DNA from: a bacterium
GTDB lineage: Bacteria > Zhuqueibacterota > Zhuqueibacteria > Oceanimicrobiales > Oceanimicrobiaceae
Length of the DNA: 10,348 nucleotides
Assembly: GCA_046757025.1 (NCBI GenBank)
Contig: JBHHXN010000184.1
Span: 1 to 10,348 of the forward strand
Direction: 5' to 3'
Below are positions 561 through 10,348 of the stretch, one piece after another. Under the pieces are notes generated by a model, which worked only from the letters and a program-made list of their open reading frames with translations, was not told the origin of the DNA and made no database searches. Position numbers and translations under genes: made by a program. The number at the start of each line of letters is the position of its first letter. The stretch's first letter is position 1.

Positions 561-576
561 TGGCACAAGCTTTGCG
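561..576 (+). promoter_or_regulatory. sigma54 (RpoN) -24/-12 promoter
   Basis: TGGCACAAGCTTTGCG matches TGGCAC-N5-TTGC, with GG at 562-563 and GC at 574-575 (exact GG-N10-GC spacing). The predicted TSS is near 586-588, about 33 nt before ATG 620. The upstream DNA is very AT-rich (361-420 has 12/60 G+C). Confidence 0.8.
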
Positions 577-619
577 AAGAGGAAAATTAATTTTGAGTTT
601 TAATCGAATAATTAAAAGT

Positions 620-937
620 ATGATGCGTTTAAAATTATTTTTCTTTTGTTCTGGCTTGATTTTTTCAATCATTCTCCTCGTCCGGTGCAGCGGCCCGTTT
701 CCTTCGATCTCAAAATCTGGGTTACCTTCCGATCACACCGAAAAAATAAAAGGTGTCCTTCACAAAAAAGGATTTAAATATCCATACAAAACAAATAGCG
801 GTTGTTCCGATTCGAAATGTCATCAAGATGATCTCGATGGCGGTGTCGCAGAAGTCGATGGGAAAATCACTATCTCTCCATCTTGCTTCCAGTGCCATGA
901 GACCTTGTGGGAAGATGACATTGATGAGGAAAATTGA
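620..937 (+). CDS. Small di-heme c-type cytochrome, probable lipoprotein (CxxxxCH...CxxCH type), 105 aa
   Basis: Start moved from 476 to ATG 620 (or 623), downstream of the sigma54 promoter and at the beginning of a hydrophobic signal MMRLKLFFFCSGLIFSIILLVR-C (atypical lipobox). Heme motifs are CSDSKCH (803-823) and CFQCH (884-898). Two further His (SDHT, VLHK) are candidate distal ligands. Acidic tail. Confidence 0.8.
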   Translation: MMRLKLFFFCSGLIFSIILLVRCSGPFPSISKSGLPSDHTEKIKGVLHKKGFKYPYKTNSGCSDSKCHQDDLDGGVAEVDGKITISPSCFQCHETLWEDDIDEEN

Positions 938-970
938 ATTTTTAGAAAGAAGAACTTTTACATCTTAAAT

Positions 971-978
971 AAGGAGGT
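971..978 (+). promoter_or_regulatory. Shine-Dalgarno site for the TlpA-like gene
   Basis: AAGGAGGT lies 5 nt upstream of GTG 984. Confidence 0.8.
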
Positions 979-983
979 TTAAA

Positions 984-1481
984 GTGAATAGATTTCTAAT
1001 TGGATTGCTATTGTTCGTTTCTGTGGGAGCTCTGGTGCAAGCCCGGGAAAATTTGACCAGGGCTAAGGACTTCAAAGGCTTAACTGTTACGGGTGATAAA
1101 ATAAATCTTTCCGATTATAAAGGTCAGGTGGTTATTCTCGATTTCTGGGCGAGCTGGTGCAAGCCCTGCCAGAAAGAATTCCCGTTTCTCATCGAGTTGT
1201 ATAATACATACTATAAAAAGGGATTGACGGTGATCACGGTTAATTTGGATGAAAACCCGGTGAACATGAAAAAATTTCTGTCAAAGCTTAAGGCTAAAGT
1301 CCTGTTTCCGCTAATTGTGGACAAAGAGGGAAAGATACCCGCCATGTACAAAGTAGAGGCCATGCCCACGACGCTTTTTATCGACAAGCGCGGAATGATT
1401 CGCAGCCGGCACACCGGCTTCAAAGATTCACACAAGCCGATATATCACAAAGAATTACAATTGTTACTGGCAGAGAAATAA
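984..1481 (+). CDS. TlpA/ResA-family periplasmic thiol:disulfide oxidoreductase (thioredoxin fold), 165 aa
   Basis: Signal peptide (…GALVQA|RE), LSDYKGQVVILDFWASWCKPC active site, cis-Pro loop AMPTTLFID, strong RBS. Confidence 0.93.
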   Translation: MNRFLIGLLLFVSVGALVQARENLTRAKDFKGLTVTGDKINLSDYKGQVVILDFWASWCKPCQKEFPFLIELYNTYYKKGLTVITVNLDENPVNMKKFLSKLKAKVLFPLIVDKEGKIPAMYKVEAMPTTLFIDKRGMIRSRHTGFKDSHKPIYHKELQLLLAEK

Positions 1482-1495
1482 CGGAGAAATTGTCG

Positions 1496-1708
1496 ATGAA
1501 ATTAAAACATCTCATTTGGTTGTTTCTGGTGTTGGTTCTGTCAAGCTGTGCCACTGTCCAACCCTGGGAAAGGGGAGGGCTGTCTGATCCCATCATGATT
1601 TTTGACGAGAACCCCCTGGACGCCGGCATTAACGAACATCATATCGATTATCGTGAAGGATCGGTGGGCGGCACTGGCGCACAAAGCGGAGGTTGCGGTT
1701 GTGGTTAA
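1496..1708 (+). CDS. DUF4266-family small lipoprotein, 70 aa
   Basis: GGAG at 1483-1486 precedes ATG 1496. Lipobox LSS-C, then ATVQPWERG.L.DPIM, REGS.GG and a C-terminal GGCGCG (CxC), all hallmarks of DUF4266. It sits between a TlpA-like gene and DUF3570, as expected. Confidence 0.88.
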   Translation: MKLKHLIWLFLVLVLSSCATVQPWERGGLSDPIMIFDENPLDAGINEHHIDYREGSVGGTGAQSGGCGCG

Positions 1709-2849
1709 GTCGATTCAATTGCTCATATCAATTTGTTTTTTTGCTGCGACCGCAACCTTTTCACAGGATTTACCTGAAAGTGAATTGCAGGTTAACTTGA
1801 ATTCGTATTTCGACAGTTTTAATGTCGAGATTGTGTATCCCAGTATTTCGTTGACCAAAAAATTGTCGGAAACGACTTCGGTCAACGCGCGCTATCTGGT
1901 GGATGTCATCAGTGCGGCATCCATGAAAAGCCATTTCACAGTGGACGGTGTCACCTCAGCCACTGAAAAGGAAGACGGCGGCGGAGATAATTCACCGGAC
2001 GAAGTACGCCATGAAATCGGCGGCGGATTTACCCAGGCGATAAAAGACGGTGTTCTTTCAGTCAACTACCTGTTAAGTAAAGAACACGATTATCGTTCTA
2101 CAACCCTGGCTGGAACGTATTCACAACCGTTTGCCAGAAAGAATACGGTGCTGCAGATGGGAGTGGTGCGCAGCTGGGATAAAGTTTTCCCACAAATCCG
2201 CGACTGGGAGAAAGAGAAAGACTCCTACACATTCAGTTTGAATCTCACACAAGTATTGAGCAAGCGGTTGATTTCGCAAGCGATTTTTTCTTACAACTAT
2301 TCGAAAGGATTGCTTTCGGATCCGTATCAAATCGTACAAATTATTCAAAATGATGCGGTTGCCAATTATGAGCCGGTGCATCCGGATAAACGCATTCGCA
2401 AAGCCGTGGGTTTGCGGATGAACTACCAGGTAGATCGCAAGTCAGCTCTACAAATCGGCGTGCGTTATTACTGGGATGACTGGGAGGTCAAATCGTTTAC
2501 CACCTCGTTCAATTTTCAACAGCATTACAACGATTTTGTCACCGTTGGGCTCGGCTTTCGAAATTATGTCCAGGGCAGCGCTTTTTTCTTCAAAGAAAAT
2601 TATTTGGCGCCGGAAGAATTCATGACAGTGGATAGTAAATTGGACGAATTGTATTCCAATGAATATCAATTGAAGTTGAGTTTAAACGGCGGGCATTTCA
2701 AGGGCGTGCCATTTTTATCCAATGAGAAGGTGCAATTGAACTTGCGAGTTAATTTTTACCATCGGCACACCTCTACGCCCAATTGGCACAGCCGCACCAA
2801 AGACCTGTACGCGTACATTCTCAGCTTCGGCGCGCGCTATCGTTTTTAA
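1701..2849 (+). CDS. DUF3570-family outer-membrane beta-barrel protein, candidate ApbE flavinylation substrate, 382 aa
   Basis: Start moved to GTG 1701 (GGAGG at 1688-1692; signal peptide MVKSIQLLISICFFAATATFS|QD). Alternating amphipathic strands, family-like segments (SKEHDYRS, GLLSDPY, RYYWDDWEVKS) and a C-terminal beta-signal GARYRF. Motifs VDVISAAS and VDGVTSAT. Confidence 0.85.
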   Translation: MVKSIQLLISICFFAATATFSQDLPESELQVNLNSYFDSFNVEIVYPSISLTKKLSETTSVNARYLVDVISAASMKSHFTVDGVTSATEKEDGGGDNSPDEVRHEIGGGFTQAIKDGVLSVNYLLSKEHDYRSTTLAGTYSQPFARKNTVLQMGVVRSWDKVFPQIRDWEKEKDSYTFSLNLTQVLSKRLISQAIFSYNYSKGLLSDPYQIVQIIQNDAVANYEPVHPDKRIRKAVGLRMNYQVDRKSALQIGVRYYWDDWEVKSFTTSFNFQQHYNDFVTVGLGFRNYVQGSAFFFKENYLAPEEFMTVDSKLDELYSNEYQLKLSLNGGHFKGVPFLSNEKVQLNLRVNFYHRHTSTPNWHSRTKDLYAYILSFGARYRF

Positions 2850-2884
2850 AGGCAAATAGATTTAAATTGAAAAAGGAATCGAAC

Positions 2885-3568
2885 ATGAAACGTAGAGAAT
2901 TCTTAAAAAACTGTTCGCTGGTTTTAACTGGCCTGGCAGTGACCAAAGGTGTTGGCATGCAGCGGAATTGGCTTTTTGCGAAAGAATCGGGATGGGATTT
3001 TTCGCTTGATTTGCTCACAGATGATCCCGTGCGCGCAGTGGCTAAATTAACAGATCTGCTCAGAACATTCGACTGCAATTTAGATGAAATCAAATACACG
3101 GAATACACTCTTCCCGGTCAGCAAATTGGCGACTTGGTGCTCATCAAAAACGAGCAACTGATCAATTTTAGAAAAAGCCCGGATGCCCTGTCAAAACAAT
3201 TACTGGAAATTGCAAATGAGCTTGGGCTGCCCCGAGCTATGGAAAATCCGACCCTGGTCAGATTCTCCAACAAGCGCAGCGAACGTGCTTCCACGGAGGT
3301 TCACATCTTTCACAAAAATCGTCTGATCGAAAAAATCTCCGTGGCTGCCCATCAGCCGTCCCTTCAAATTAAAGGCACCAAAGGAGAGCTTACGGTGGCA
3401 ATTGAAAGTGCTGAAGTGAGAATCACCCATGCTTCCTGCAAGCACAAGACCTGTGTGAAAATGGGTCGGATCGAGCAGTCCGGGCAAAATCTGGTGTGCG
3501 TACCCAATGAAATTCGTATTGCCATCGCTGGCGAAAATGCTCTGGGAGTCGATAGTGTGGCTTATTAA
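2885..3568 (+). CDS. Tat-exported protein with a C-terminal NusG domain II (Lin0431/DUF1312-like), 227 aa
   Basis: AAGGAA precedes ATG 2885. Twin-arginine signal MKRREFLKNCSLVLTGLAV. The C-terminal GELTVAIESAEVRITHASCKHKTCVKMGRIEQSGQNLVCVPNEIRIAI matches the NusG-II pattern SxCPxKxCVxxGxIxxxGxxIVCxPN. Confidence 0.85.
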   Translation: MKRREFLKNCSLVLTGLAVTKGVGMQRNWLFAKESGWDFSLDLLTDDPVRAVAKLTDLLRTFDCNLDEIKYTEYTLPGQQIGDLVLIKNEQLINFRKSPDALSKQLLEIANELGLPRAMENPTLVRFSNKRSERASTEVHIFHKNRLIEKISVAAHQPSLQIKGTKGELTVAIESAEVRITHASCKHKTCVKMGRIEQSGQNLVCVPNEIRIAIAGENALGVDSVAY

Positions 3569-4580
3569 ATTGACCGGCGCGACCCTGTTTTTTAGCTTGT
3601 GCTTTTCAAATATCAACTATGCCGGCGACAAAGGTCCGGCATTTGAAATTTCAACGACCAAATATTTATTAGGGACGGAGGTTGAAATTACTGTAGTACA
3701 TGCCGATATCCAGAAAGCAAAAGTCGCCAGTTACCATGCCTACAAAGAAATCGAGCGCATAGAAGCCCTGCTGAGCTCGCACGATGAGCAAAGCGAAATC
3801 TCATACATCAATCACAACGGCTGGAAGGCGCCGGTCAAAGTCAGTTACGAGACGTTCGCCATTCTGCAAAGAGCCATTGCTTACTCGGAAAAGTTCTTCG
3901 GATTGTTCGACGTGACCATCGGGCCGTTGAGTGAGCTGTGGGGCTTCAATGGCGATCAAGAAATTAAATTGCCACTCAAAGACGAGCTGCAATCGCGGCA
4001 GGCTCTGGTGGATTTTCACCTGATTTCATTCGATGTTCAGGATACCACTGTTTTCCTGGCAAAAAAAGGAATGCGCATTGATTTAGGCGGCATTGCGAAG
4101 GGATACGCGGTGGACCGAGCAGCCGTGGTTTTGAAGAACGACGGTGTGAAAAAGTTTTTAATTAATGCTGGCGGCGATATTTATGCCTGTGGCTGGAAAA
4201 ATGCCAAATCCAAATGGCAGGTGGGATTGCAGCATCCGAGAAAGCGCCAGAAGTTGTTAGCCAGGTTCGAGTTAAGCGATTTCGCGGTGGCCACCAGCGG
4301 CGATTACGAACGATTTGTTGAAATCGACGGTCGGCGTTATCATCACATCCTGAATCCAGAAACCGGCGTCCCTGGAGACTTGAGCCAGAGTGTCACGGTG
4401 TTTGCCCCCACGGTCGAAGAAGCGGATGTGTGGGCTACGTTTTTGTTTCTATACGGGAAAAATGACAAATCACCTCTGCCAAATCCGCACAAAATTAAAT
4501 CGCTTCTGGTGCATTCTGACGGGCAAATCGATTGCGATGACTCATTAAAATCAGAGTTCGGGTTGCAATTTCTCAATTAA
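3555..4580 (+). CDS. apbE: FAD:protein FMN transferase (flavin transferase ApbE), about 341 aa
   Basis: Motifs LGTEVEI, SEISYIN, FDVTIGPL..LWGF, IDLGGIAKGYAVD, INAGGDI, VATSGDYER, YHHILNPETG, ADVWAT. The likely start is GTG 3555 (GGGAG at 3544-3548, followed by a signal peptide); ATG 3537 and 3507 are alternatives. Confidence 0.96.
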   Translation: MWLIKLTGATLFFSLCFSNINYAGDKGPAFEISTTKYLLGTEVEITVVHADIQKAKVASYHAYKEIERIEALLSSHDEQSEISYINHNGWKAPVKVSYETFAILQRAIAYSEKFFGLFDVTIGPLSELWGFNGDQEIKLPLKDELQSRQALVDFHLISFDVQDTTVFLAKKGMRIDLGGIAKGYAVDRAAVVLKNDGVKKFLINAGGDIYACGWKNAKSKWQVGLQHPRKRQKLLARFELSDFAVATSGDYERFVEIDGRRYHHILNPETGVPGDLSQSVTVFAPTVEEADVWATFLFLYGKNDKSPLPNPHKIKSLLVHSDGQIDCDDSLKSEFGLQFLN

Positions 4581-4821: not shown

Positions 4822-5832
4822 ATGGTCATGTACGAGCTAATCGTGATTGGCGCCGGTCCCGCGGGTATCAGTATGGCGGTTGAAGCACGTCAGGCTGGCA
4901 TTCCTGCCGACAAAATATTAATCCTCGAAAAGTCCGAAGAACACTCATGGACCATTCGCAAATTGTATCCTGAAGGCAAACCGGTGGCGGCAAATTACAA
5001 GGGACAGAATGCCCTTTGTCATGGCGTGATGTGCATCCCGGACTTGAGTAAAGAGGAAACCCTGTCCTATCTCGACCGGGCCATTCAAGAAAATGCCTTG
5101 CATGTTCATTACAAAGAAGGCGTAAATGCCATTCAACAACTCAAAACGGGCGGCTTTAAAATTGTCACAGAGCAGTGCACCCACCCCACAAAAGTGTGCG
5201 TTATCGCCATCGGTATTTTCGGTAAACCGAATAAGCCGGATTATCCATTACCGCGTTCTCTCAAATCAAGAATTCATTTTGATGTGACTTCGGTTACCAT
5301 TGAAAATTCGCGCGTACTGGTGGTGGGCGGTGGAGATTCCGCATCCGAATACGTGCAGTACTTGTGTGAGCGAAACAATGAGATCACCCTTTCCTATCGC
5401 AGGGATGATTTTTGGCGTATGAATGAAATCAATAAAAAAAGTTTACTCGCACTTGAAAAAACGGAAGCCGTGGAAGTCATGCGCAGCAGCACCGTCATCA
5501 AAGTTGTCGAAGAAGACGGCAAACCCAAAGTGACTTTAGCAAAAAGGGAACAGTACGAACGTGTCTTCGATCATCTGGTTTATGCTTTGGGCGGTACTAC
5601 CCCACAGAATTTTTTACGAAGCATCGGCATCGACTTTGAAGGAGAGGTGCCCACTGTCAAAGATGGGTACGAGACGAATATTCCGGGTTTATTTTTGATT
5701 GGAGATTTAACCGCCGGTCGCAAAGGCGGATCGATCATTTCTGCGTTCAACTCATCCCGCTCCGCCATGGTGCGCATTTGTGACAATTATCTTGCATGCA
5801 CGGTGCCTATGGTTCCCACACATCAGAGTTAA
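4822..5832 (+). CDS. NAD(P)/FAD-dependent oxidoreductase, thioredoxin-reductase fold without CxxC; FqrB-like (flavodoxin/ferredoxin:NADP+ reductase type), 336 aa
   Basis: FAD motif VIGAGPAG, NADPH motif VVGGGDSA...SYRR, C-terminal ETNIPGLFLIGD, no redox CxxC. Segments EKSEEHS.TIRKLYPEGK, SKEETL, AIG..GKPNKP.Y.LP and LVYALGGTTP..FL resemble Helicobacter/Campylobacter FqrB as recalled. AAGGAA RBS; no signal peptide. Confidence 0.85.
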   Translation: MVMYELIVIGAGPAGISMAVEARQAGIPADKILILEKSEEHSWTIRKLYPEGKPVAANYKGQNALCHGVMCIPDLSKEETLSYLDRAIQENALHVHYKEGVNAIQQLKTGGFKIVTEQCTHPTKVCVIAIGIFGKPNKPDYPLPRSLKSRIHFDVTSVTIENSRVLVVGGGDSASEYVQYLCERNNEITLSYRRDDFWRMNEINKKSLLALEKTEAVEVMRSSTVIKVVEEDGKPKVTLAKREQYERVFDHLVYALGGTTPQNFLRSIGIDFEGEVPTVKDGYETNIPGLFLIGDLTAGRKGGSIISAFNSSRSAMVRICDNYLACTVPMVPTHQS

Positions 5833-5874
5833 TCAACATACATTGCAATTTATCTTAAAATATTTTTCTTTAAG

Positions 5875-5910
5875 AAAAAGGGGCAGGTATTAAATACCCG
5901 CCCCTTTTTT
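5875..5910. terminator. Bidirectional rho-independent terminator between convergent genes
   Basis: AAAAA-GGGGCAGGTAT-TAA-ATACCCGCCCC-TTTTTT: an 11-bp stem with one mismatch (a G-U wobble on the minus-strand RNA), flanked by A and T tracts. Confidence 0.9.
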
Positions 5911-5944: not shown

Positions 5945-8900
5945 TCAGGGATAGAGCTGAGAACTACCTGGAGTCGGAATCTTAAATTGACCCAAAACGC
6001 CTGTCGGAATACGCATGACCATCGGGGAATTAGCTCGCCATTCGAAAGCGCCCATATCGATCATACCGTTGACCACAGACCTGGGAAGTCTTTCCAAATC
6101 AATGCCAGGACCGATAGACGCATCCGCCTGATCGATGACTGGAGAACCCGGCTGCAATCTCCAATTTAAATTGGCGGGATCCACGAACATGGGATCGAAG
6201 TTGAGGTTGTTGCCACTCATCTGAAACAGGCTTTTGGCTCTTTTCTGGTGAACCTGTGTTTTTGCGGTATTTTTTAACTCCCGCATAAACAAACTCCTGA
6301 TCTTAGTACTCATACTCAGCCAGTTGGTAAAGGACAGGGTTCCGTCTGATGCGATAGCAAGATGCGGTGCAGGAGAGCTGGTTTCGATAATTAGCTCTGG
6401 AGCCGTGCTGCCTTCTTTGGAGCTGTATTTTGCAGCATCGGAGGAAGCGTTTTTTATTCCGAAGCTGTAAACACCGTCTCCAGTTATAGCAGTAGAGACA
6501 TCAAACTCCACGATGTCACCTTTGGCAACGGCGCCGACGGAGCTTAATGGACTGCCGCCTATGGCCGGTGCGTTGTTCCAGTTCAGGCTGCCTTCATCCC
6601 AGCTACTGGCAATCGAATAGATTGAACCGCCGTCGTCACTGGCACTGACCACTTTCAATCGGAGCCGCGCACTGGTTACGTTGCCACTAAGTCCGTTCAC
6701 GGCGAACATCAAGTAAGCGTGCATCTCTTTTGAGGATGTTTTGCGCAAGCGAAGTTGGCTGGAACCGCCATAATTTTTACTGGACTTGTCTGACCGAGCA
6801 AATGCATCGTCAGTTGGGTTGAATGTGAAGGTACCTGGAGTTCCTCCGCCGCCAGCGTTGACGGTTATGATAACCTGGTCAGTTCCGGTCGCACCCTGAT
6901 TATCCGCTACTGTCAAAGTGATGTTGTGCGTACCCACTGTAAGCGATACCGAAGGTGTAATGCCAGTAGCGAAGACAAGTCCGCCTTCACTCCAGTCGTA
7001 GCTAACAATACTGCCGTCGGTGTCATAAGAGTCGCTGCCATCGAGCGAGACTATTTCAGCACCTGAGTTGTCAGAGTCAGTTACTGTTTGGTCAGGTCCG
7101 GCGTCCGCGACGGGTGGTGTGTTGGCGCCGCCGCCAGCGTTGACCGTCACCACTACTTGATCCGCTGCGGTTGCACCGTGGTCATCGGATACTGTCAAAA
7201 CGATGGTGTGGACACCCACGGCAAGATTTACCGTAGGTACGCTACCAGTCGCAATGGTACTCCCGCTTTCACTCCAGTCATAACTCATAATAGTACCATC
7301 GGAATCGTAGGAACCGCTGCCATCCAGCGTAACCATTTCATCATCCGAGTTGTCGCTGTCGGTCACGGTTTGATCCGCACCGGCATCCGCTATGGGCGGA
7401 GTGTTGCCTCCGCCGCCGCTACTGGTTTCGATGATCAGCTCTGGCGGAGTGGAACCCTCTTTTGAGCTAAATTTAGCGATGTCGGACGAATTGTTCTTCA
7501 GTCCAAAGGAATAGGTACCGTTCCCCGATATAGCGGAGGATACATCGAATTCTACCATATCGCCACTTGAAATTTTGCCAGCAGAACTCAATGACGAACC
7601 AGGAAACTGCGGTGCACTCTCCCAGGTGACATTGTCTTCATTCCAGTCATTAGTTACCGCATAAATGGAGCCGCCATCTTTACTGCCATTGCGAACTTTC
7701 AGGCGAACCTTTGCATTCAAGATCGAACCACTCAGTCCCGTTACATCGAACTTCAGAAAACTGTGAAATGTTGTGGAGGAATTACGCACGCGAAGATCGC
7801 GTCTCCGGCCATAATTATTCAATTTACGATTGGATCGTACATAGCTATCGTCAGTCGGAATAAATGAAACGGTAGTTGGTGTGATGGCGTTCACGGTTAC
7901 GCTAACTACGTCTGTGCTCGAAGCGCCGCGTTCATCAAACACTTTCAGTAAAATGGTGTGAGAACCGATTGCCAATTCCACCGTTGGATTCACACCCGTT
8001 GCGAGGGGTGCGCCGTTTTCGGTCCAGGTGTAGCTGACGATGGAGCCGTCGGAGTCTGAAGAGCCGCTGCCATCGAGGGTTACGGGTTCGGAGCCGCTGT
8101 TGTCCAGGTCTTTGAGGGCCTGGTTGGCGCCGGCATCGGCGGTGGGCGGCTGGTTATTGTAATCGTAGCCTCCCATGATGTTGTTAAAGGCGACCTGGCT
8201 GAAGCTGTTGGAGTTTTGTTCGCTCAGCCATTCCGGCTGCACATGGGGGTTGTCCACGTGCAACTGATCGGGTGTCCAGACATAGTTTTTAGCCCAGGTG
8301 TAATCCAGGTCTTCTTCTTCCCCGCCTTCCACTGGCTGCTGGTAATTCACACGCCAGTTGCCCCAGATGATGTTGTTGAAGATCATCGGATCACTGTATC
8401 CAGGCGGCATATAAACGCTGCCGTCTGGTTTTTCAGCAATGTACTCGTGGCCATGGCGTTCGCTGTCGATACCGCCACCGGCGGGGTCAAAGCTGCCCAT
8501 CACCATATTGCCGACGATGGTGTTATTGAATATTTTAGCATCACGGATATCGTCCAATGCAAGAGCGGCGCCGCGGGCATGGTTCTCGCCGTGATCGTCG
8601 GCGATGTTTTCCGCGAACAAGTTGTTATAGACGTTGATGTGGGACAGGGTGTCGGCAATGTCTTCAAAACTGATGGCGCCGCCGTCATCCGGTGTCCAGT
8701 TGCGCAGAAAAACGTTACCGTAGATATCTGCAGGTCCAGAGTCTTCAAGGAACATCGCTCCGCCGTGGTCTTCGGCTTTGTTTTCCATCATGACGTTGCC
8801 ATAGACTTTGAGATGGTCCTTGATCTCATACAAACAGACAGCGCCGCCGTAATCCGCCGACCAGTTGTGAAACAGAATGTTGTTGTAGATTTCATAGGTA

Positions 8901-10348
8901 CCTGGAGGCGGGCCGGGGTTGTAATCGTCCCAGACATGCTCGGGCTGGCCGTGCTCTTCAGAGTACTCCGGTTCGTCGTTGACGCTGATGCCGCCGCCGT
9001 AGCCGCCGAAGTTGCCGTTTTCGGCGATGACGTTGGACCAGATCTTGACGTTGTGGTTGGAGTAATGCAGCCAGATACCGCCGCCGTAGTAGCCGCCGTT
9101 GCGGAAGATGATGTTGTTGTTGATATCGAGATCGGAATTGCCGTAATCGCAGAAAATTCCGGCGCCGATTTCTTCAAGAACAGTGCCACCGGTTATGGTA
9201 AAGCCGCAGACACGGATATCAGATTTTGCGCCATGAATACCGCCTTTTCCAATAAAAATGGTTGGTCCGGCGCCGCCGCCTTCGCCCTGGTGTTGAATTT
9301 GCATGCGTTCGGGCAGGCCGTTGATGGTGGTTTCATGAGGTCCCGAACCGATCAGGTGAACGTGGTTTTTATCGATTTTTACACGTTCATTGTAGGTGCC
9401 AGGCGCTACGAATATATATCTCGGGGTTCGGTTAGGTAAATTGTTTACGGCCTCCTGTATGGTGTTCCAGGGGTTGGCCTTGCTACCGTCTTCCGGACCG
9501 CTGTTGCTGGCATCCACATAAACAGACCGTTTTCTCATATAAGAAGCTCTGCTGGATCTATAGTTGATTTCAACCATCAATGCGTTAGAAAGGCCGGTTG
9601 TGGTTGCGACTAAGAGGGGACCGCTAATGGCATCTGAGGGTATTTCGACGTCGATGTAATTGTCGGTCCATTCGAGCACGTCCAGGGGCTGTCCGGCCAG
9701 GCTGACGGTCTGGTACCCCTGGGCGTCGCCGAAATTGAAGCCCTGGATGCGATAGGTATCGCCGGGAGCCAGAATGACCGGTGGGCTGGCCGCCAATTTG
9801 GTGTTTTTCCCTTTGGCTCCTGTGCGTCCCAGAACCTGTGCTGGCGGCGCGCCGGGCACGATGATGGTGGGCTCGGTAAACAGAATGAGCGGGTCCTGGT
9901 TACATCCGAAGGTAAAGGGGGCGGTGGCCGTGGGCACGAGGGACCAGTCGGCTTCGAATTTGAATTTGCCCTGTCCGAAGGTGTAGGGAAGAATCAGGGG
10001 CAAATAGTTGGGGCAGAATCCCGGCAGAGTGGGGTCGTTGCCGGCGTAGATATGCACGCCGGGCGCGAAGCGGCGTTCCATTTCGGGTTTTTGCACGGGA
10101 TCTTCCCCGGGTGGACAATCGCCCGGGTAGGCGGCGGCATGGCAGAGTGGATTGCCCATGAAGCCGGCGCCCATGAGATAGCCGAGGTGGTCGTAGACGC
10201 CTACGGGGGCGCCGGGCACGCCGGCTTTTTCTGCGAACAGCAGACTTCTGGCATCGCCGGGATCGGGCGTAAACTCGCCGCCGCGGTTATCGATGTTGAC
10301 GTCGTCGAAGACGCCGCCTTCGATTTCGCCGGCCAGGGGCACGCCGAA
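5945..10348 (-). CDS. Very large extracellular multidomain protein, 5'-truncated (>1465 aa): IPT/TIG - right-handed beta-helix (pectin-lyase-like) - PKD - DNRLRE/CBM96 - PKD - PKD - DNRLRE/CBM96 - choice-of-anchor-Q-like tail
   Basis: The frame is open to the window edge (…TTC GGC GTG CCC), so GTG 10342 is probably not the start. IPT ~9560-9790. Beta-helix ~8165-9527 (VYVDASN..DGS.ANPWNTIQEAV, then repeated N.I..N....GGGI). PKD units NxPPxADAG…VTLDGSxSxDxDGxIxSYxW at ~7886-8157, ~7136-7405 and ~6854-7123. DNRLRE/CBM96-like units PTDD…NYG…L.F.V…SSKEG..PELIIET at ~7424-7872 and ~6380-6833. Tail DPMFVDPANLNWRLQPGSPVID…IDMGAFE at ~6038-6220. Confidence 0.9.
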   Translation of the reverse strand, partial: FGVPLAGEIEGGVFDDVNIDNRGGEFTPDPGDARSLLFAEKAGVPGAPVGVYDHLGYLMGAGFMGNPLCHAAAYPGDCPPGEDPVQKPEMERRFAPGVHIYAGNDPTLPGFCPNYLPLILPYTFGQGKFKFEADWSLVPTATAPFTFGCNQDPLILFTEPTIIVPGAPPAQVLGRTGAKGKNTKLAASPPVILAPGDTYRIQGFNFGDAQGYQTVSLAGQPLDVLEWTDNYIDVEIPSDAISGPLLVATTTGLSNALMVEINYRSSRASYMRKRSVYVDASNSGPEDGSKANPWNTIQEAVNNLPNRTPRYIFVAPGTYNERVKIDKNHVHLIGSGPHETTINGLPERMQIQHQGEGGGAGPTIFIGKGGIHGAKSDIRVCGFTITGGTVLEEIGAGIFCDYGNSDLDINNNIIFRNGGYYGGGIWLHYSNHNVKIWSNVIAENGNFGGYGGGISVNDEPEYSEEHGQPEHVWDDYNPGPPPGTYEIYNNILFHNWSADYGGAVCLYEIKDHLKVYGNVMMENKAEDHGGAMFLEDSGPADIYGNVFLRNWTPDDGGAISFEDIADTLSHINVYNNLFAENIADDHGENHARGAALALDDIRDAKIFNNTIVGNMVMGSFDPAGGGIDSERHGHEYIAEKPDGSVYMPPGYSDPMIFNNIIWGNWRVNYQQPVEGGEEEDLDYTWAKNYVWTPDQLHVDNPHVQPEWLSEQNSNSFSQVAFNNIMGGYDYNNQPPTADAGANQALKDLDNSGSEPVTLDGSGSSDSDGSIVSYTWTENGAPLATGVNPTVELAIGSHTILLKVFDERGASSTDVVSVTVNAITPTTVSFIPTDDSYVRSNRKLNNYGRRRDLRVRNSSTTFHSFLKFDVTGLSGSILNAKVRLKVRNGSKDGGSIYAVTNDWNEDNVTWESAPQFPGSSLSSAGKISSGDMVEFDVSSAISGNGTYSFGLKNNSSDIAKFSSKEGSTPPELIIETSSGGGGNTPPIADAGADQTVTDSDNSDDEMVTLDGSGSYDSDGTIMSYDWSESGSTIATGSVPTVNLAVGVHTIVLTVSDDHGATAADQVVVTVNAGGGANTPPVADAGPDQTVTDSDNSGAEIVSLDGSDSYDTDGSIVSYDWSEGGLVFATGITPSVSLTVGTHNITLTVADNQGATGTDQVIITVNAGGGGTPGTFTFNPTDDAFARSDKSSKNYGGSSQLRLRKTSSKEMHAYLMFAVNGLSGNVTSARLRLKVVSASDDGGSIYSIASSWDEGSLNWNNAPAIGGSPLSSVGAVAKGDIVEFDVSTAITGDGVYSFGIKNASSDAAKYSSKEGSTAPELIIETSSPAPHLAIASDGTLSFTNWLSMSTKIRSLFMRELKNTAKTQVHQKRAKSLFQMSGNNLNFDPMFVDPANLNWRLQPGSPVIDQADASIGPGIDLERLPRSVVNGMIDMGAFEWRANSPMVMRIPTGVLGQFKIPTPGSSQLYP
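6380..8157 (-). repeat. Intragenic domain repeats: three PKD and two DNRLRE/CBM96-like modules
   Basis: Near-identical peptides recur, e.g. DIAKFSSKEGSTPPELIIETSS vs DAAKYSSKEGSTAPELIIETSS, and NTPPIADAGADQTVTDSDNS vs NTPPVADAGPDQTVTDSDNS, joined by GGGG linkers. Confidence 0.9.

Follow-up and report, generated by a model that had tools for sequence, protein, structure and literature searches.

A conserved six-gene cluster led by a predicted sigma-54 promoter, with a putative flavinylated outer-membrane barrel and thiol-lipoprotein plug, in uncultured KSB1-related bacteria

The window analysed here is the whole of contig JBHHXN010000184.1 (10,348 nt; C184 in genome G000), which belongs to a 5.96-Mb genome of 94.8% completeness. 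Six open reading frames (ORFs) lie on its plus strand between positions 620 and 4580 and encode, in this order, a small probable dihaem cytochrome lipoprotein, a TlpA/ResA-like thioredoxin, a DUF4266 lipoprotein, a DUF3570 protein predicted to form an outer-membrane beta-barrel, a Tat-signal protein with an EetA-like domain (DUF1312/NusG_II), and ApbE, a flavin adenine dinucleotide (FAD):protein flavin mononucleotide (FMN) transferase (Table 1). The gaps between them are 46, 14, -8, 35, and -14 nt, a spacing that points to co-transcription of the six genes. An earlier reading of the same DNA (hereafter, the sequence-only reading) had described six tightly spaced genes for exported proteins behind a single sigma-54 promoter, and this description held. 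The six ORFs were recovered, the assigned families were matched in Pfam above the cut-off (AhpC-TSA/Redoxin, DUF4266, DUF3570, NusG_II, and ApbE), and export signals were recognised on all six products, by eye and from conservation rather than with a signal-peptide predictor. The promoter-like site is the only match to TGGCAC-N5-TTGC in the window (0.03 expected; one match was reached in 6 of 200 shuffles). Among 18 loci of relatives, 10 have a like site 5' of the cytochrome gene, against an expectation of 0.046 per window; of the eight without it, one offered just 66 nt of upstream sequence. Both rpoN and tatC are present in the genome. A search for activator sites upstream of the promoter gave merely a weak conserved patch among 10 sequences. 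The closest titled relatives of the window proteins come from KSB1, Calditrichota-labelled, and Ignavibacteria records, and the window DNA is present in hydrothermal-vent metagenome runs from one study. The cluster is a conserved six-gene set of uncultured KSB1-related bacteria, led by a predicted sigma-54 promoter.

Table 1. Coordinates of the features assigned in the window
Feature	Positions	Strand	Evidence or remark
Sigma-54 -24/-12 promoter-like site, TGGCAC-N5-TTGC	561-575	+	Single match in window; rpoN in genome
Small probable dihaem c-type cytochrome lipoprotein	620-937	+	CX4CH 803-823; CX2CH 884-898; invariant H39, H48
TlpA/ResA-like periplasmic thioredoxin (WCKPC)	984-1481	+	PF00578, E 9.5e-27; PF08534, E 9.4e-23
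DUF4266 lipoprotein, Gly-rich arm, Cys-Gly-Cys end (1694-1702)	1496-1708	+	PF14086, E 4.8e-19
DUF3570, predicted 16-strand outer-membrane beta-barrel	1701-2849	+	PF12094, E 5.9e-38; AlphaFold2 pLDDT 91.8
Flavinylation-like motif 1, DVISAAS (residues 47-53)	1902-1922	+	Outer end of strand 3
Flavinylation-like motif 2, DGVTSAT (residues 61-67)	1944-1964	+	Long outer loop, low pLDDT
Tat-signal protein, ~90-aa unclassified domain and EetA-like DUF1312/NusG_II domain	2885-3568	+	PF07009, E 1.3e-18
ApbE FAD:protein FMN transferase, without lipobox	3555-4580	+	PF02424, E 5.3e-81
Dispersed repeat at contig start	1-157	.	Genome-wide, 122 blastn matches to the first 620 nt

A search of 61 related genomes located DUF3570 in 25. 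A clear ORF was present at 34 of the 35 places that were fetched, and these comprised 15 of the window type, 17 of a second type, and 2 of the classic ApbE-DUF4266-DUF3570 arrangement. DUF4266 lies directly 5' of DUF3570 in all 15 close loci, and TlpA precedes it in 14, the contig ending in the remaining one. When the cytochrome was used as the query, DUF3570 was located at most three genes downstream in 16 of the 17 closest loci (the remaining contig ends there), and was not near the cytochrome homologue in 7 distant matches and 4 further distant homologues. In searches not selected on the cytochrome, its gene stands 5' of TlpA in 13 of 22 loci (relatives, 10 of 13; metagenomes, 3 of 9), five loci having been dropped from this count (short upstream DNA, or TlpA absent from the contig). 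Across the 22 loci the sigma-54 site accompanies the cytochrome (10/13 with it vs 0/9 without), as does a divergently transcribed DUF2271 gene (9/13 vs 0/9). Note that the locus sets of the separate searches overlap and that related genomes are not independent counts. Because the sigma-54 site and DUF2271 go with the cytochrome, the three form, judged from gene order, an accessory set that may or may not accompany the TlpA-DUF4266-DUF3570 core. The proposal that this is an expanded version of the TlpA-DUF4266-DUF3570-ApbE system was therefore upheld, with conservation in relatives. The cytochrome and NusG_II genes are both conserved next to DUF3570, but the cytochrome, absent from 9 of the 22 loci, is not the fixed part of a conduit that had been envisaged.

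Mature DUF3570 was modelled with AlphaFold2 on a 135-sequence alignment, with a pLDDT (predicted local distance difference test) score of 91.8. The model shows 16 long strands in which the side bearing both termini has short turns and the opposite side long loops, and the C-terminal residue is Phe, as in outer-membrane proteins. Foldseek returned barrels only. The best fold matches were the 16-strand export channels PelB, BcsC, and PgaA (Z 20.1, 19.8, and 19.6; root-mean-square deviation (rmsd) 3.2-3.9; 252-295 aligned residues), and MtrB ranked 32nd (Z 13.9, rmsd 7.7, 285 residues); no solved relative was found by sequence for either DUF3570 or DUF4266. The earlier proposal of a beta-barrel is thus sustained by the model, and DUF3570 is predicted to be an outer-membrane barrel. 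A copper channel with a Met ladder was considered and rejected, there being no Met/His ladder and just M287 being widely kept (117/135).

The two motif-like sites near the outer end of the barrel (Table 1) are kept in close homologues: of 118 such proteins, 103 carry two sites, 11 carry three, and 4 carry one. Site 2 aligns with the single canonical TGAS/SGAS site of the 17 second-type paralogues, and one DUF2271 orthologue has a canonical DAVTGAT where others have D[AG][VI]TSAT. One DUF3570 protein, from Chlorobium luteolum, was reported to be flavinylated in vitro at two serines (PMC8238504), and according to a review about 50% of flavinylation is kept after a Gly-to-Ala change in the ApbE motif (PMC12052999). 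On account of the C. luteolum protein, the kept sites, and the tolerated Gly-to-Ala change, flavinylation of the window DUF3570 at its variant motifs is likely. The sequence-only reading was too cautious in treating DUF3570 flavinylation as merely noted. Its FMN-decorated barrel agrees with the modelled barrel and the conserved motifs, with the qualification that both motifs lack the canonical Gly. The invariant residues R82, E107, D109, Y110, and D139 lie beside the motifs on strands 4-7. Since ApbE is periplasmic while the sites face outward, FMN would be attached before the barrel is inserted into the membrane.

Modelling of DUF3570 together with DUF4266 placed the lipoprotein in the barrel lumen. 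The ESMFold2 co-folding score of the two mature proteins was 0.70 (best control, 0.00). Of 157 solved complexes 116 reach the mark, and of 215 mismatched pairs 2 do; with our own alignments in use, these counts hold roughly. Between runs, 75% or more of the contacts coincide, and the partner pLDDT is 61-68. In the model, the contacts with DUF4266 alternate along 12 of the 16 strands (1-3 and 8-16), and the contacted residues therefore face the lumen. Residues 16-19 of DUF4266 would meet strands 9-11 near their periplasmic ends, with periplasmic turns also in the interface, and R36, E37, and G38 would meet Y268, S298, R334, S244, K292, and Y332 near the outer mouth, on strands 12-16. DUF4266 is thus predicted to thread the DUF3570 lumen. 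Strands 4-7 make no confident contact with DUF4266 in the model and may be the natural site for the flavins and for the DUF4266 tail, which the model leaves unplaced. The lipobox Cys of DUF4266 and both tail cysteines, C50 and C52, are invariant (29/29). As for the thiol/flavin relay through the CxC of DUF4266, the modelled geometry gives the lumen passage that such a relay would need, and does not give the contact of CxC with FMN.

TlpA has ResA as its best NCBIfam match, below the cut-off. DUF2271, the other flavinylation substrate described in Meheust 2021 (PMC8238504), was divergently upstream of the cluster in eight scanned loci, with DsbD beside it in four (L069, L071, L072, and L077). 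In the present genome a DUF2271 gene (carboxypeptidase-regulatory domain; motif DAVTSAT) and an intact DsbD gene, whose product has six catalytic-type Cys, open another contig, C82 (L123:268-2949); downstream of them lie TPR and lysA-like genes, which L071 has in the same place. The window begins in a dispersed repeat, for which the listed blastn matches cover positions 1-165 and the read depth is 260-430 vs 6-12; C82, too, begins in a repeat. Because both contigs begin in dispersed repeats and show synteny with relatives (L071), they are probably adjacent, head to head, separated by the repeat, and DUF2271 and DsbD are probably located divergently upstream of the cluster in this genome as well. 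A Pro-rich C-terminal tail, which resembles half a fibronectin strand, is conserved among the DUF2271 orthologues.

The EetA-like domain of the Tat-signal protein carries CxxxxC and CxP, ends in a D-x-V-x-x tail, and has fold matches to 4ESN, 3LD7, and 4OBI, and the RRxF of the signal is invariant (22/22 Tat proteins). For the N-terminal domain, searched within the whole protein, Foldseek gave no clear match. A transcription-factor role for NusG_II was rejected in view of the Tat signal, the DUF1312 fold, and the link to ApbE. In EetA terms, the gene to compare is lmo2639, which we take to be eetA. Its product was reported to hold DUF1312 (PMC3091722). Of 36 metagenome loci with the Tat form, 29 had 400 nt or more downstream, and ApbE follows in all 29, as it does in 18 of 20 phylum loci; DUF3570 precedes the Tat form in 19 of 27 loci only. 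Because ApbE follows so constantly and DUF3570 precedes less often, the Tat protein is predicted, on gene neighbourhood, to be an ApbE accessory that belongs with ApbE rather than with the barrel, and the two genes appear as a mobile maturation cassette. The window ApbE is probably soluble in the periplasm; the lipobox is likewise absent from 14 EetA-linked ApbE proteins of relatives, unlike the Nqr-linked ApbE of this genome. Tat-EetA and ApbE pairs without DUF3570 upstream were seen at L107, L108, L125, L144, L149, L151, L152, L156, L158, L164, and L170.

The phylum has many short, membrane-anchored EetA homologues; 10 of their loci were fetched, and PF07456 comes after the homologue in all 8 neighbours scanned. 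PF07456 is EetB, the FAD-exporting subunit that feeds ApbE in Listeria, and eetA lies beside eetB in 3,328 genomes (PMC9973259); Lactiplantibacillus eetA/B mutants lose flavin-dependent extracellular electron transfer (EET), and single genes do not complement (PMC9888254). No eetB (PF07456) match was found in the genome studied here. Among 19 Tat-form genomes, 12 lack an eetB match, 1 has a broken copy, and 6 have an intact one, while of 148 others 99 show a match; these counts include kin that are not independent, and three of the 12 eetB-less genomes are 70-80% complete. The distribution is no more than suggestive of a replacement of EetB by Tat-EetA, and a strict replacement was rejected, the pattern holding in part. 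The broken eetB is in two pieces with stops (G017:C154:154-520). An end of the form D-x-[VILT]-[ST]-x occurs in 23 of 33 EetA-like proteins of one alignment (A6) and at 25 of 36 metagenome loci vs 4 of 5071 genome ORFs, and Asp is fifth from the end, in short and Tat forms together, in 32 of 33 and 33 of 36, respectively. The window copy ends in DSVAY (3554-3568), in which the Asp is kept and the Ser/Thr is not. The tail is disordered in the model and resembles the first four residues, or first half, of the ApbE motif, and we hypothesise that it docks into ApbE as a pseudo-substrate.

The first ORF gave no Pfam, NCBIfam, or PDB-sequence match. Its CX4CH and CX2CH motifs and two further His are invariant in 14 of 14 homologues; H39 and H48 are likely the distal haem ligands, and the pattern fits two bis-His haems. 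The lipobox is atypical, with Arg before Cys, and the Cys is invariant in the alignment. A profile search yielded 120 representatives, some with up to 15 repeats of the module (15 in P0129). Some longer homologues match c7/c3 families, including PF14522, and Atlas neighbours belong to c7/c3/PF09698 at 0.86-0.91, these being leads only. Haem-attachment motifs with matching distal His are a feature that the protein has in common with class III and c7-like bis-His cytochromes. Distant standalone homologues of 80-86 aa (L134-L137) were found in unrelated contexts, without DUF3570. A haem partner recurs with DUF3570 in the phylum, judged from gene order, because in 16 of its 17 loci the second DUF3570 type is accompanied by a dihaem protein of another kind. 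The present genome also carries a locus of this second type on another contig (G000:C53, L068:6054-9617), which encodes a 630-aa dihaem protein, a DUF4266 with a GGCACN end, and DUF3570, without ApbE. The DUF3570 there has one canonical TGAS motif and is of the type seen in 17 relatives' loci, 16 of them with the large dihaem protein, and the 630-aa protein contains the middle domain of hydrazine synthase alpha (PF18582). Genes like hzsA have been reported in KSB1 genomes (PMC10732223), and this locus gives them a context. Elsewhere in the genome, 35 ORFs have at least four haem motifs (up to 31), on contigs C12, C52, C94, C158, and C186, with many on C12.

The best-supported reading of these data, which we put forward tentatively and at a little under even confidence, is an outer-membrane thiol-to-flavin reductase of low flux, fed by DsbD. 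Cytoplasmic thioredoxin, rather than the quinone pool, supplies DsbD, and CxPC motifs such as that of TlpA are of the reducing type. Electrons would pass from cytoplasmic thioredoxin to DsbD, to TlpA, to the CxC on the Gly-rich arm of DUF4266, and to FMN, of which two covalently bound copies would sit at the outer end of the barrel. At the FMN, the two-electron chemistry of thiols would be converted to single-electron transfers to an acceptor outside the cell, which may be a metal, as ion or chelate, or a haem protein of the cell surface. ApbE, with the Tat-exported EetA-like protein as its likely helper, would flavinylate both DUF2271 and the barrel, the latter in the periplasm ahead of its insertion. 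The dihaem lipoprotein, whose gene keeps company with DUF2271 and the sigma-54 site, would serve optionally as a one-electron partner. Because the probable electron source is DsbD, low-flux reductive chemistry (assimilatory or maintenance) would be expected rather than respiration. The genes, their families, the motifs, and the synteny are observed and the barrel and plug predicted, whereas we infer the DsbD link, the direction of the electrons, the acceptor, and the flavinylation of the variant motifs. A bolder version, in which a dithiol swinging arm within the flavinylated barrel makes a path across the outer membrane from DsbD to surface flavins, with interchangeable dihaem partners, and a soluble ApbE with a pseudo-substrate-docked Tat EetA-like partner supplies FAD in EetB's place, is on the doubtful side.

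Several points weigh against the reductase reading. The contact between CxC and FMN is unsupported by the model because residues 45-53 of DUF4266, with both Cys, are not placed; the modelled anchor of DUF4266 is near the outer mouth, and its arm of six residues may be too short for periplasmic TlpA; the gap between TlpA and the tail is spanned by no cofactor, and the barrel itself has no Cys. The canonical Gly is found in 0 of the 118 close DUF3570 homologues, which have Ala or Ser instead, and a test of the Ser-for-Gly variant was not found in the parts of the literature examined. Three Ignavibacteriales loci (L080-L082) have no TlpA in the cluster, the cytochrome being directly 5' of DUF4266, and EetA and ApbE are absent beside the barrel in four close loci. 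No acceptor gene is consistently nearby (Fur-FeoB at one locus, TerC at one), no contig bridges the repeat between C82 and C184, where the contigs of four DNA runs break, and eetA deletion in Listeria was reported to be without phenotype (PMC9973259).

The gap between the periplasm and the DUF4266 tail in the barrel-plug model would be less troublesome if the thiols served biogenesis only, TlpA and DsbD reducing DUF4266 and the apocytochrome Cys during assembly in a ResA/CcmG-like manner, and the barrel-plug being a flavin- and thiol-lined binding or sensing site, e.g., for a soft metal on CxC, without repeated electron flow. The match of TlpA to ResA and the atypical CX4CH fit this explanation, which we nevertheless consider unlikely. 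Covalent FMN is normally a cycling cofactor, the barrel shows no Met/His ladder, and four PF01578 maturation genes are present elsewhere in the genome. TlpA is, moreover, kept in nine loci without the cytochrome, just as the cytochrome occurs in the three loci without TlpA, and because each occurs alone, the idea of a module dedicated to cytochrome maturation, which the sequence-only reading had offered as its alternative, is weakened. A reverse or oxidase mode, in which the flavins oxidise the CxC tail with O2 or an outside acceptor, making disulfides or draining periplasmic reductant, or in which electrons are imported from an outside donor, is the least probable of the explanations weighed here. 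In yeast Erv2p a flexible CGC shuttles between a thioredoxin-fold protein and a flavin, which speaks for it, but the TlpA motif is of the reducing type and the barrel has no flavin-proximal CxxC. That the direction may be reversed was raised by Meheust 2021 and is in its favour; co-location with DsbD, a reductant exporter (PMC8238504), argues against it.

A respiratory flavin/thiol conduit that replaces Mtr-type complexes and cannot do without the dihaem lipoprotein as its relay would agree with the geometry of barrel and plug, with the different dihaem protein of the second DUF3570 type, and with the membership of EetA homologues in flavin-based EET loci (PMC9973259, PMC9888254). PF11854 (MtrB/PioB) was not matched in this genome in spite of its 35 ORFs with at least four haem motifs, although this negative concerns one Pfam family and other porin-cytochrome types may be present. 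Against this explanation, which appears quite improbable, the cytochrome is missing from 9 of the 22 loci, the probable donor DsbD uses thioredoxin, no quinol dehydrogenase recurs nearby, and two-electron thiol exchange would be slow for respiration. Because the barrel has 16 strands, the cytochrome two haems, and the electron source is probably DsbD, the cluster does not appear to be the Mtr-like conduit that the sequence-only reading had pictured, and identity with an Mtr-type conduit was rejected on the barrel size, the two-haem cytochrome of 13 of the 22 loci, and the lack of a PF11854 match.

Downstream of ApbE, a gene for a YpdA/thioredoxin-reductase-like flavoprotein (4822-5832) is followed by a 17-bp hairpin (gene and hairpin within 4822-5909); no terminator-like hairpin was found between ApbE and this gene. 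It was rejected as a part of the cluster since no homologue occurs in the scanned loci of relatives or metagenomes. A gene for a large secreted protein, unrelated to the cluster, occupies 5945-10342 on the minus strand and is cut by the contig end; its domains are a beta-helix, three PKD, two CBM96/DNRLRE, and a choice-of-anchor Q.

The core of the cluster belongs to a published system. Meheust 2021 defined 'DsbD systems' as ApbE, DUF3570, a thioredoxin-like protein, and DUF4266, and counted 285 clusters with DsbD and 316 without (PMC8238504). That system shares its core gene content, a secreted DUF4266 ending in CXC, and two motif-like sites on DUF3570 with the window. DsbD, which there lies within five genes, is adjacent in the four relatives' loci listed above and probably close by here as well, on C82. 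The differences are that its thioredoxin is cited as PF13899 (PF00578/PF08534 here), that its two [S/T]GA[S/T] motifs have the Gly (Ala or Ser here), and that DUF2271 is tied to PepSY systems, whereas in relatives of the window it lies divergently upstream. The window cluster adds the dihaem lipoprotein, the Tat EetA-like protein, the divergent DUF2271, and the sigma-54 site. The words 'barrel', 'porin', and 'NusG' do not occur in the main text of that paper, although the neighbours in its Supplementary file 1 may include like clusters; the gene trio is mentioned, and no more, in the consulted part of Haft 2023 (10.1101/2023.06.07.544157), and 'barrel' is absent from Huang 2024, supplement aside (10.1101/2024.03.13.584918). 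The literature searched gave no account of DUF3570 as a barrel, of DUF4266 as its plug, or of an EetA exported by Tat.

EetA of Listeria, Enterococcus, and Lactiplantibacillus shares the PF07009/DUF1312 domain, its fold, CxxxxC, and CxP with the window protein; it has a membrane anchor and an adjacent eetB, whereas the window protein has a Tat signal, an extra domain of ~90 aa, and ApbE next to it, and is classed as EetA-like rather than as EetA. The Tat form bears on the role of EetA and on the FAD route to periplasmic ApbE in double-membraned bacteria without EetB. A barrel with a redox partner in its lumen is what the predicted complex has in common with MtrCAB. MtrB has 26 strands. It belongs to PF11854, DUF3570 to PF12094, and the MtrCAB plug is a decahaem protein where the window has a 53-residue thiol lipoprotein. 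PelB, BcsC, and PgaA share barrel size and fold class with DUF3570 at 9-12% identity, and have a TPR scaffold and polysaccharide genes, neither of which is in the window, where redox motifs are found instead. The closest parallels to the predicted position of DUF4266 in DUF3570 are LptD-LptE and RcsF-OmpA, LptE and RcsF being lipoproteins in barrel lumens. A barrel with a thiol-lipoprotein plug would give a system of several hundred known gene clusters a concrete architecture with named residues and, if true, a cytochrome-independent movement of reducing power across the outer membrane. Compared with the systems above, the core is already published, and neither the predicted barrel with its plug nor the predicted Tat-exported helper of ApbE was found in the literature searched.

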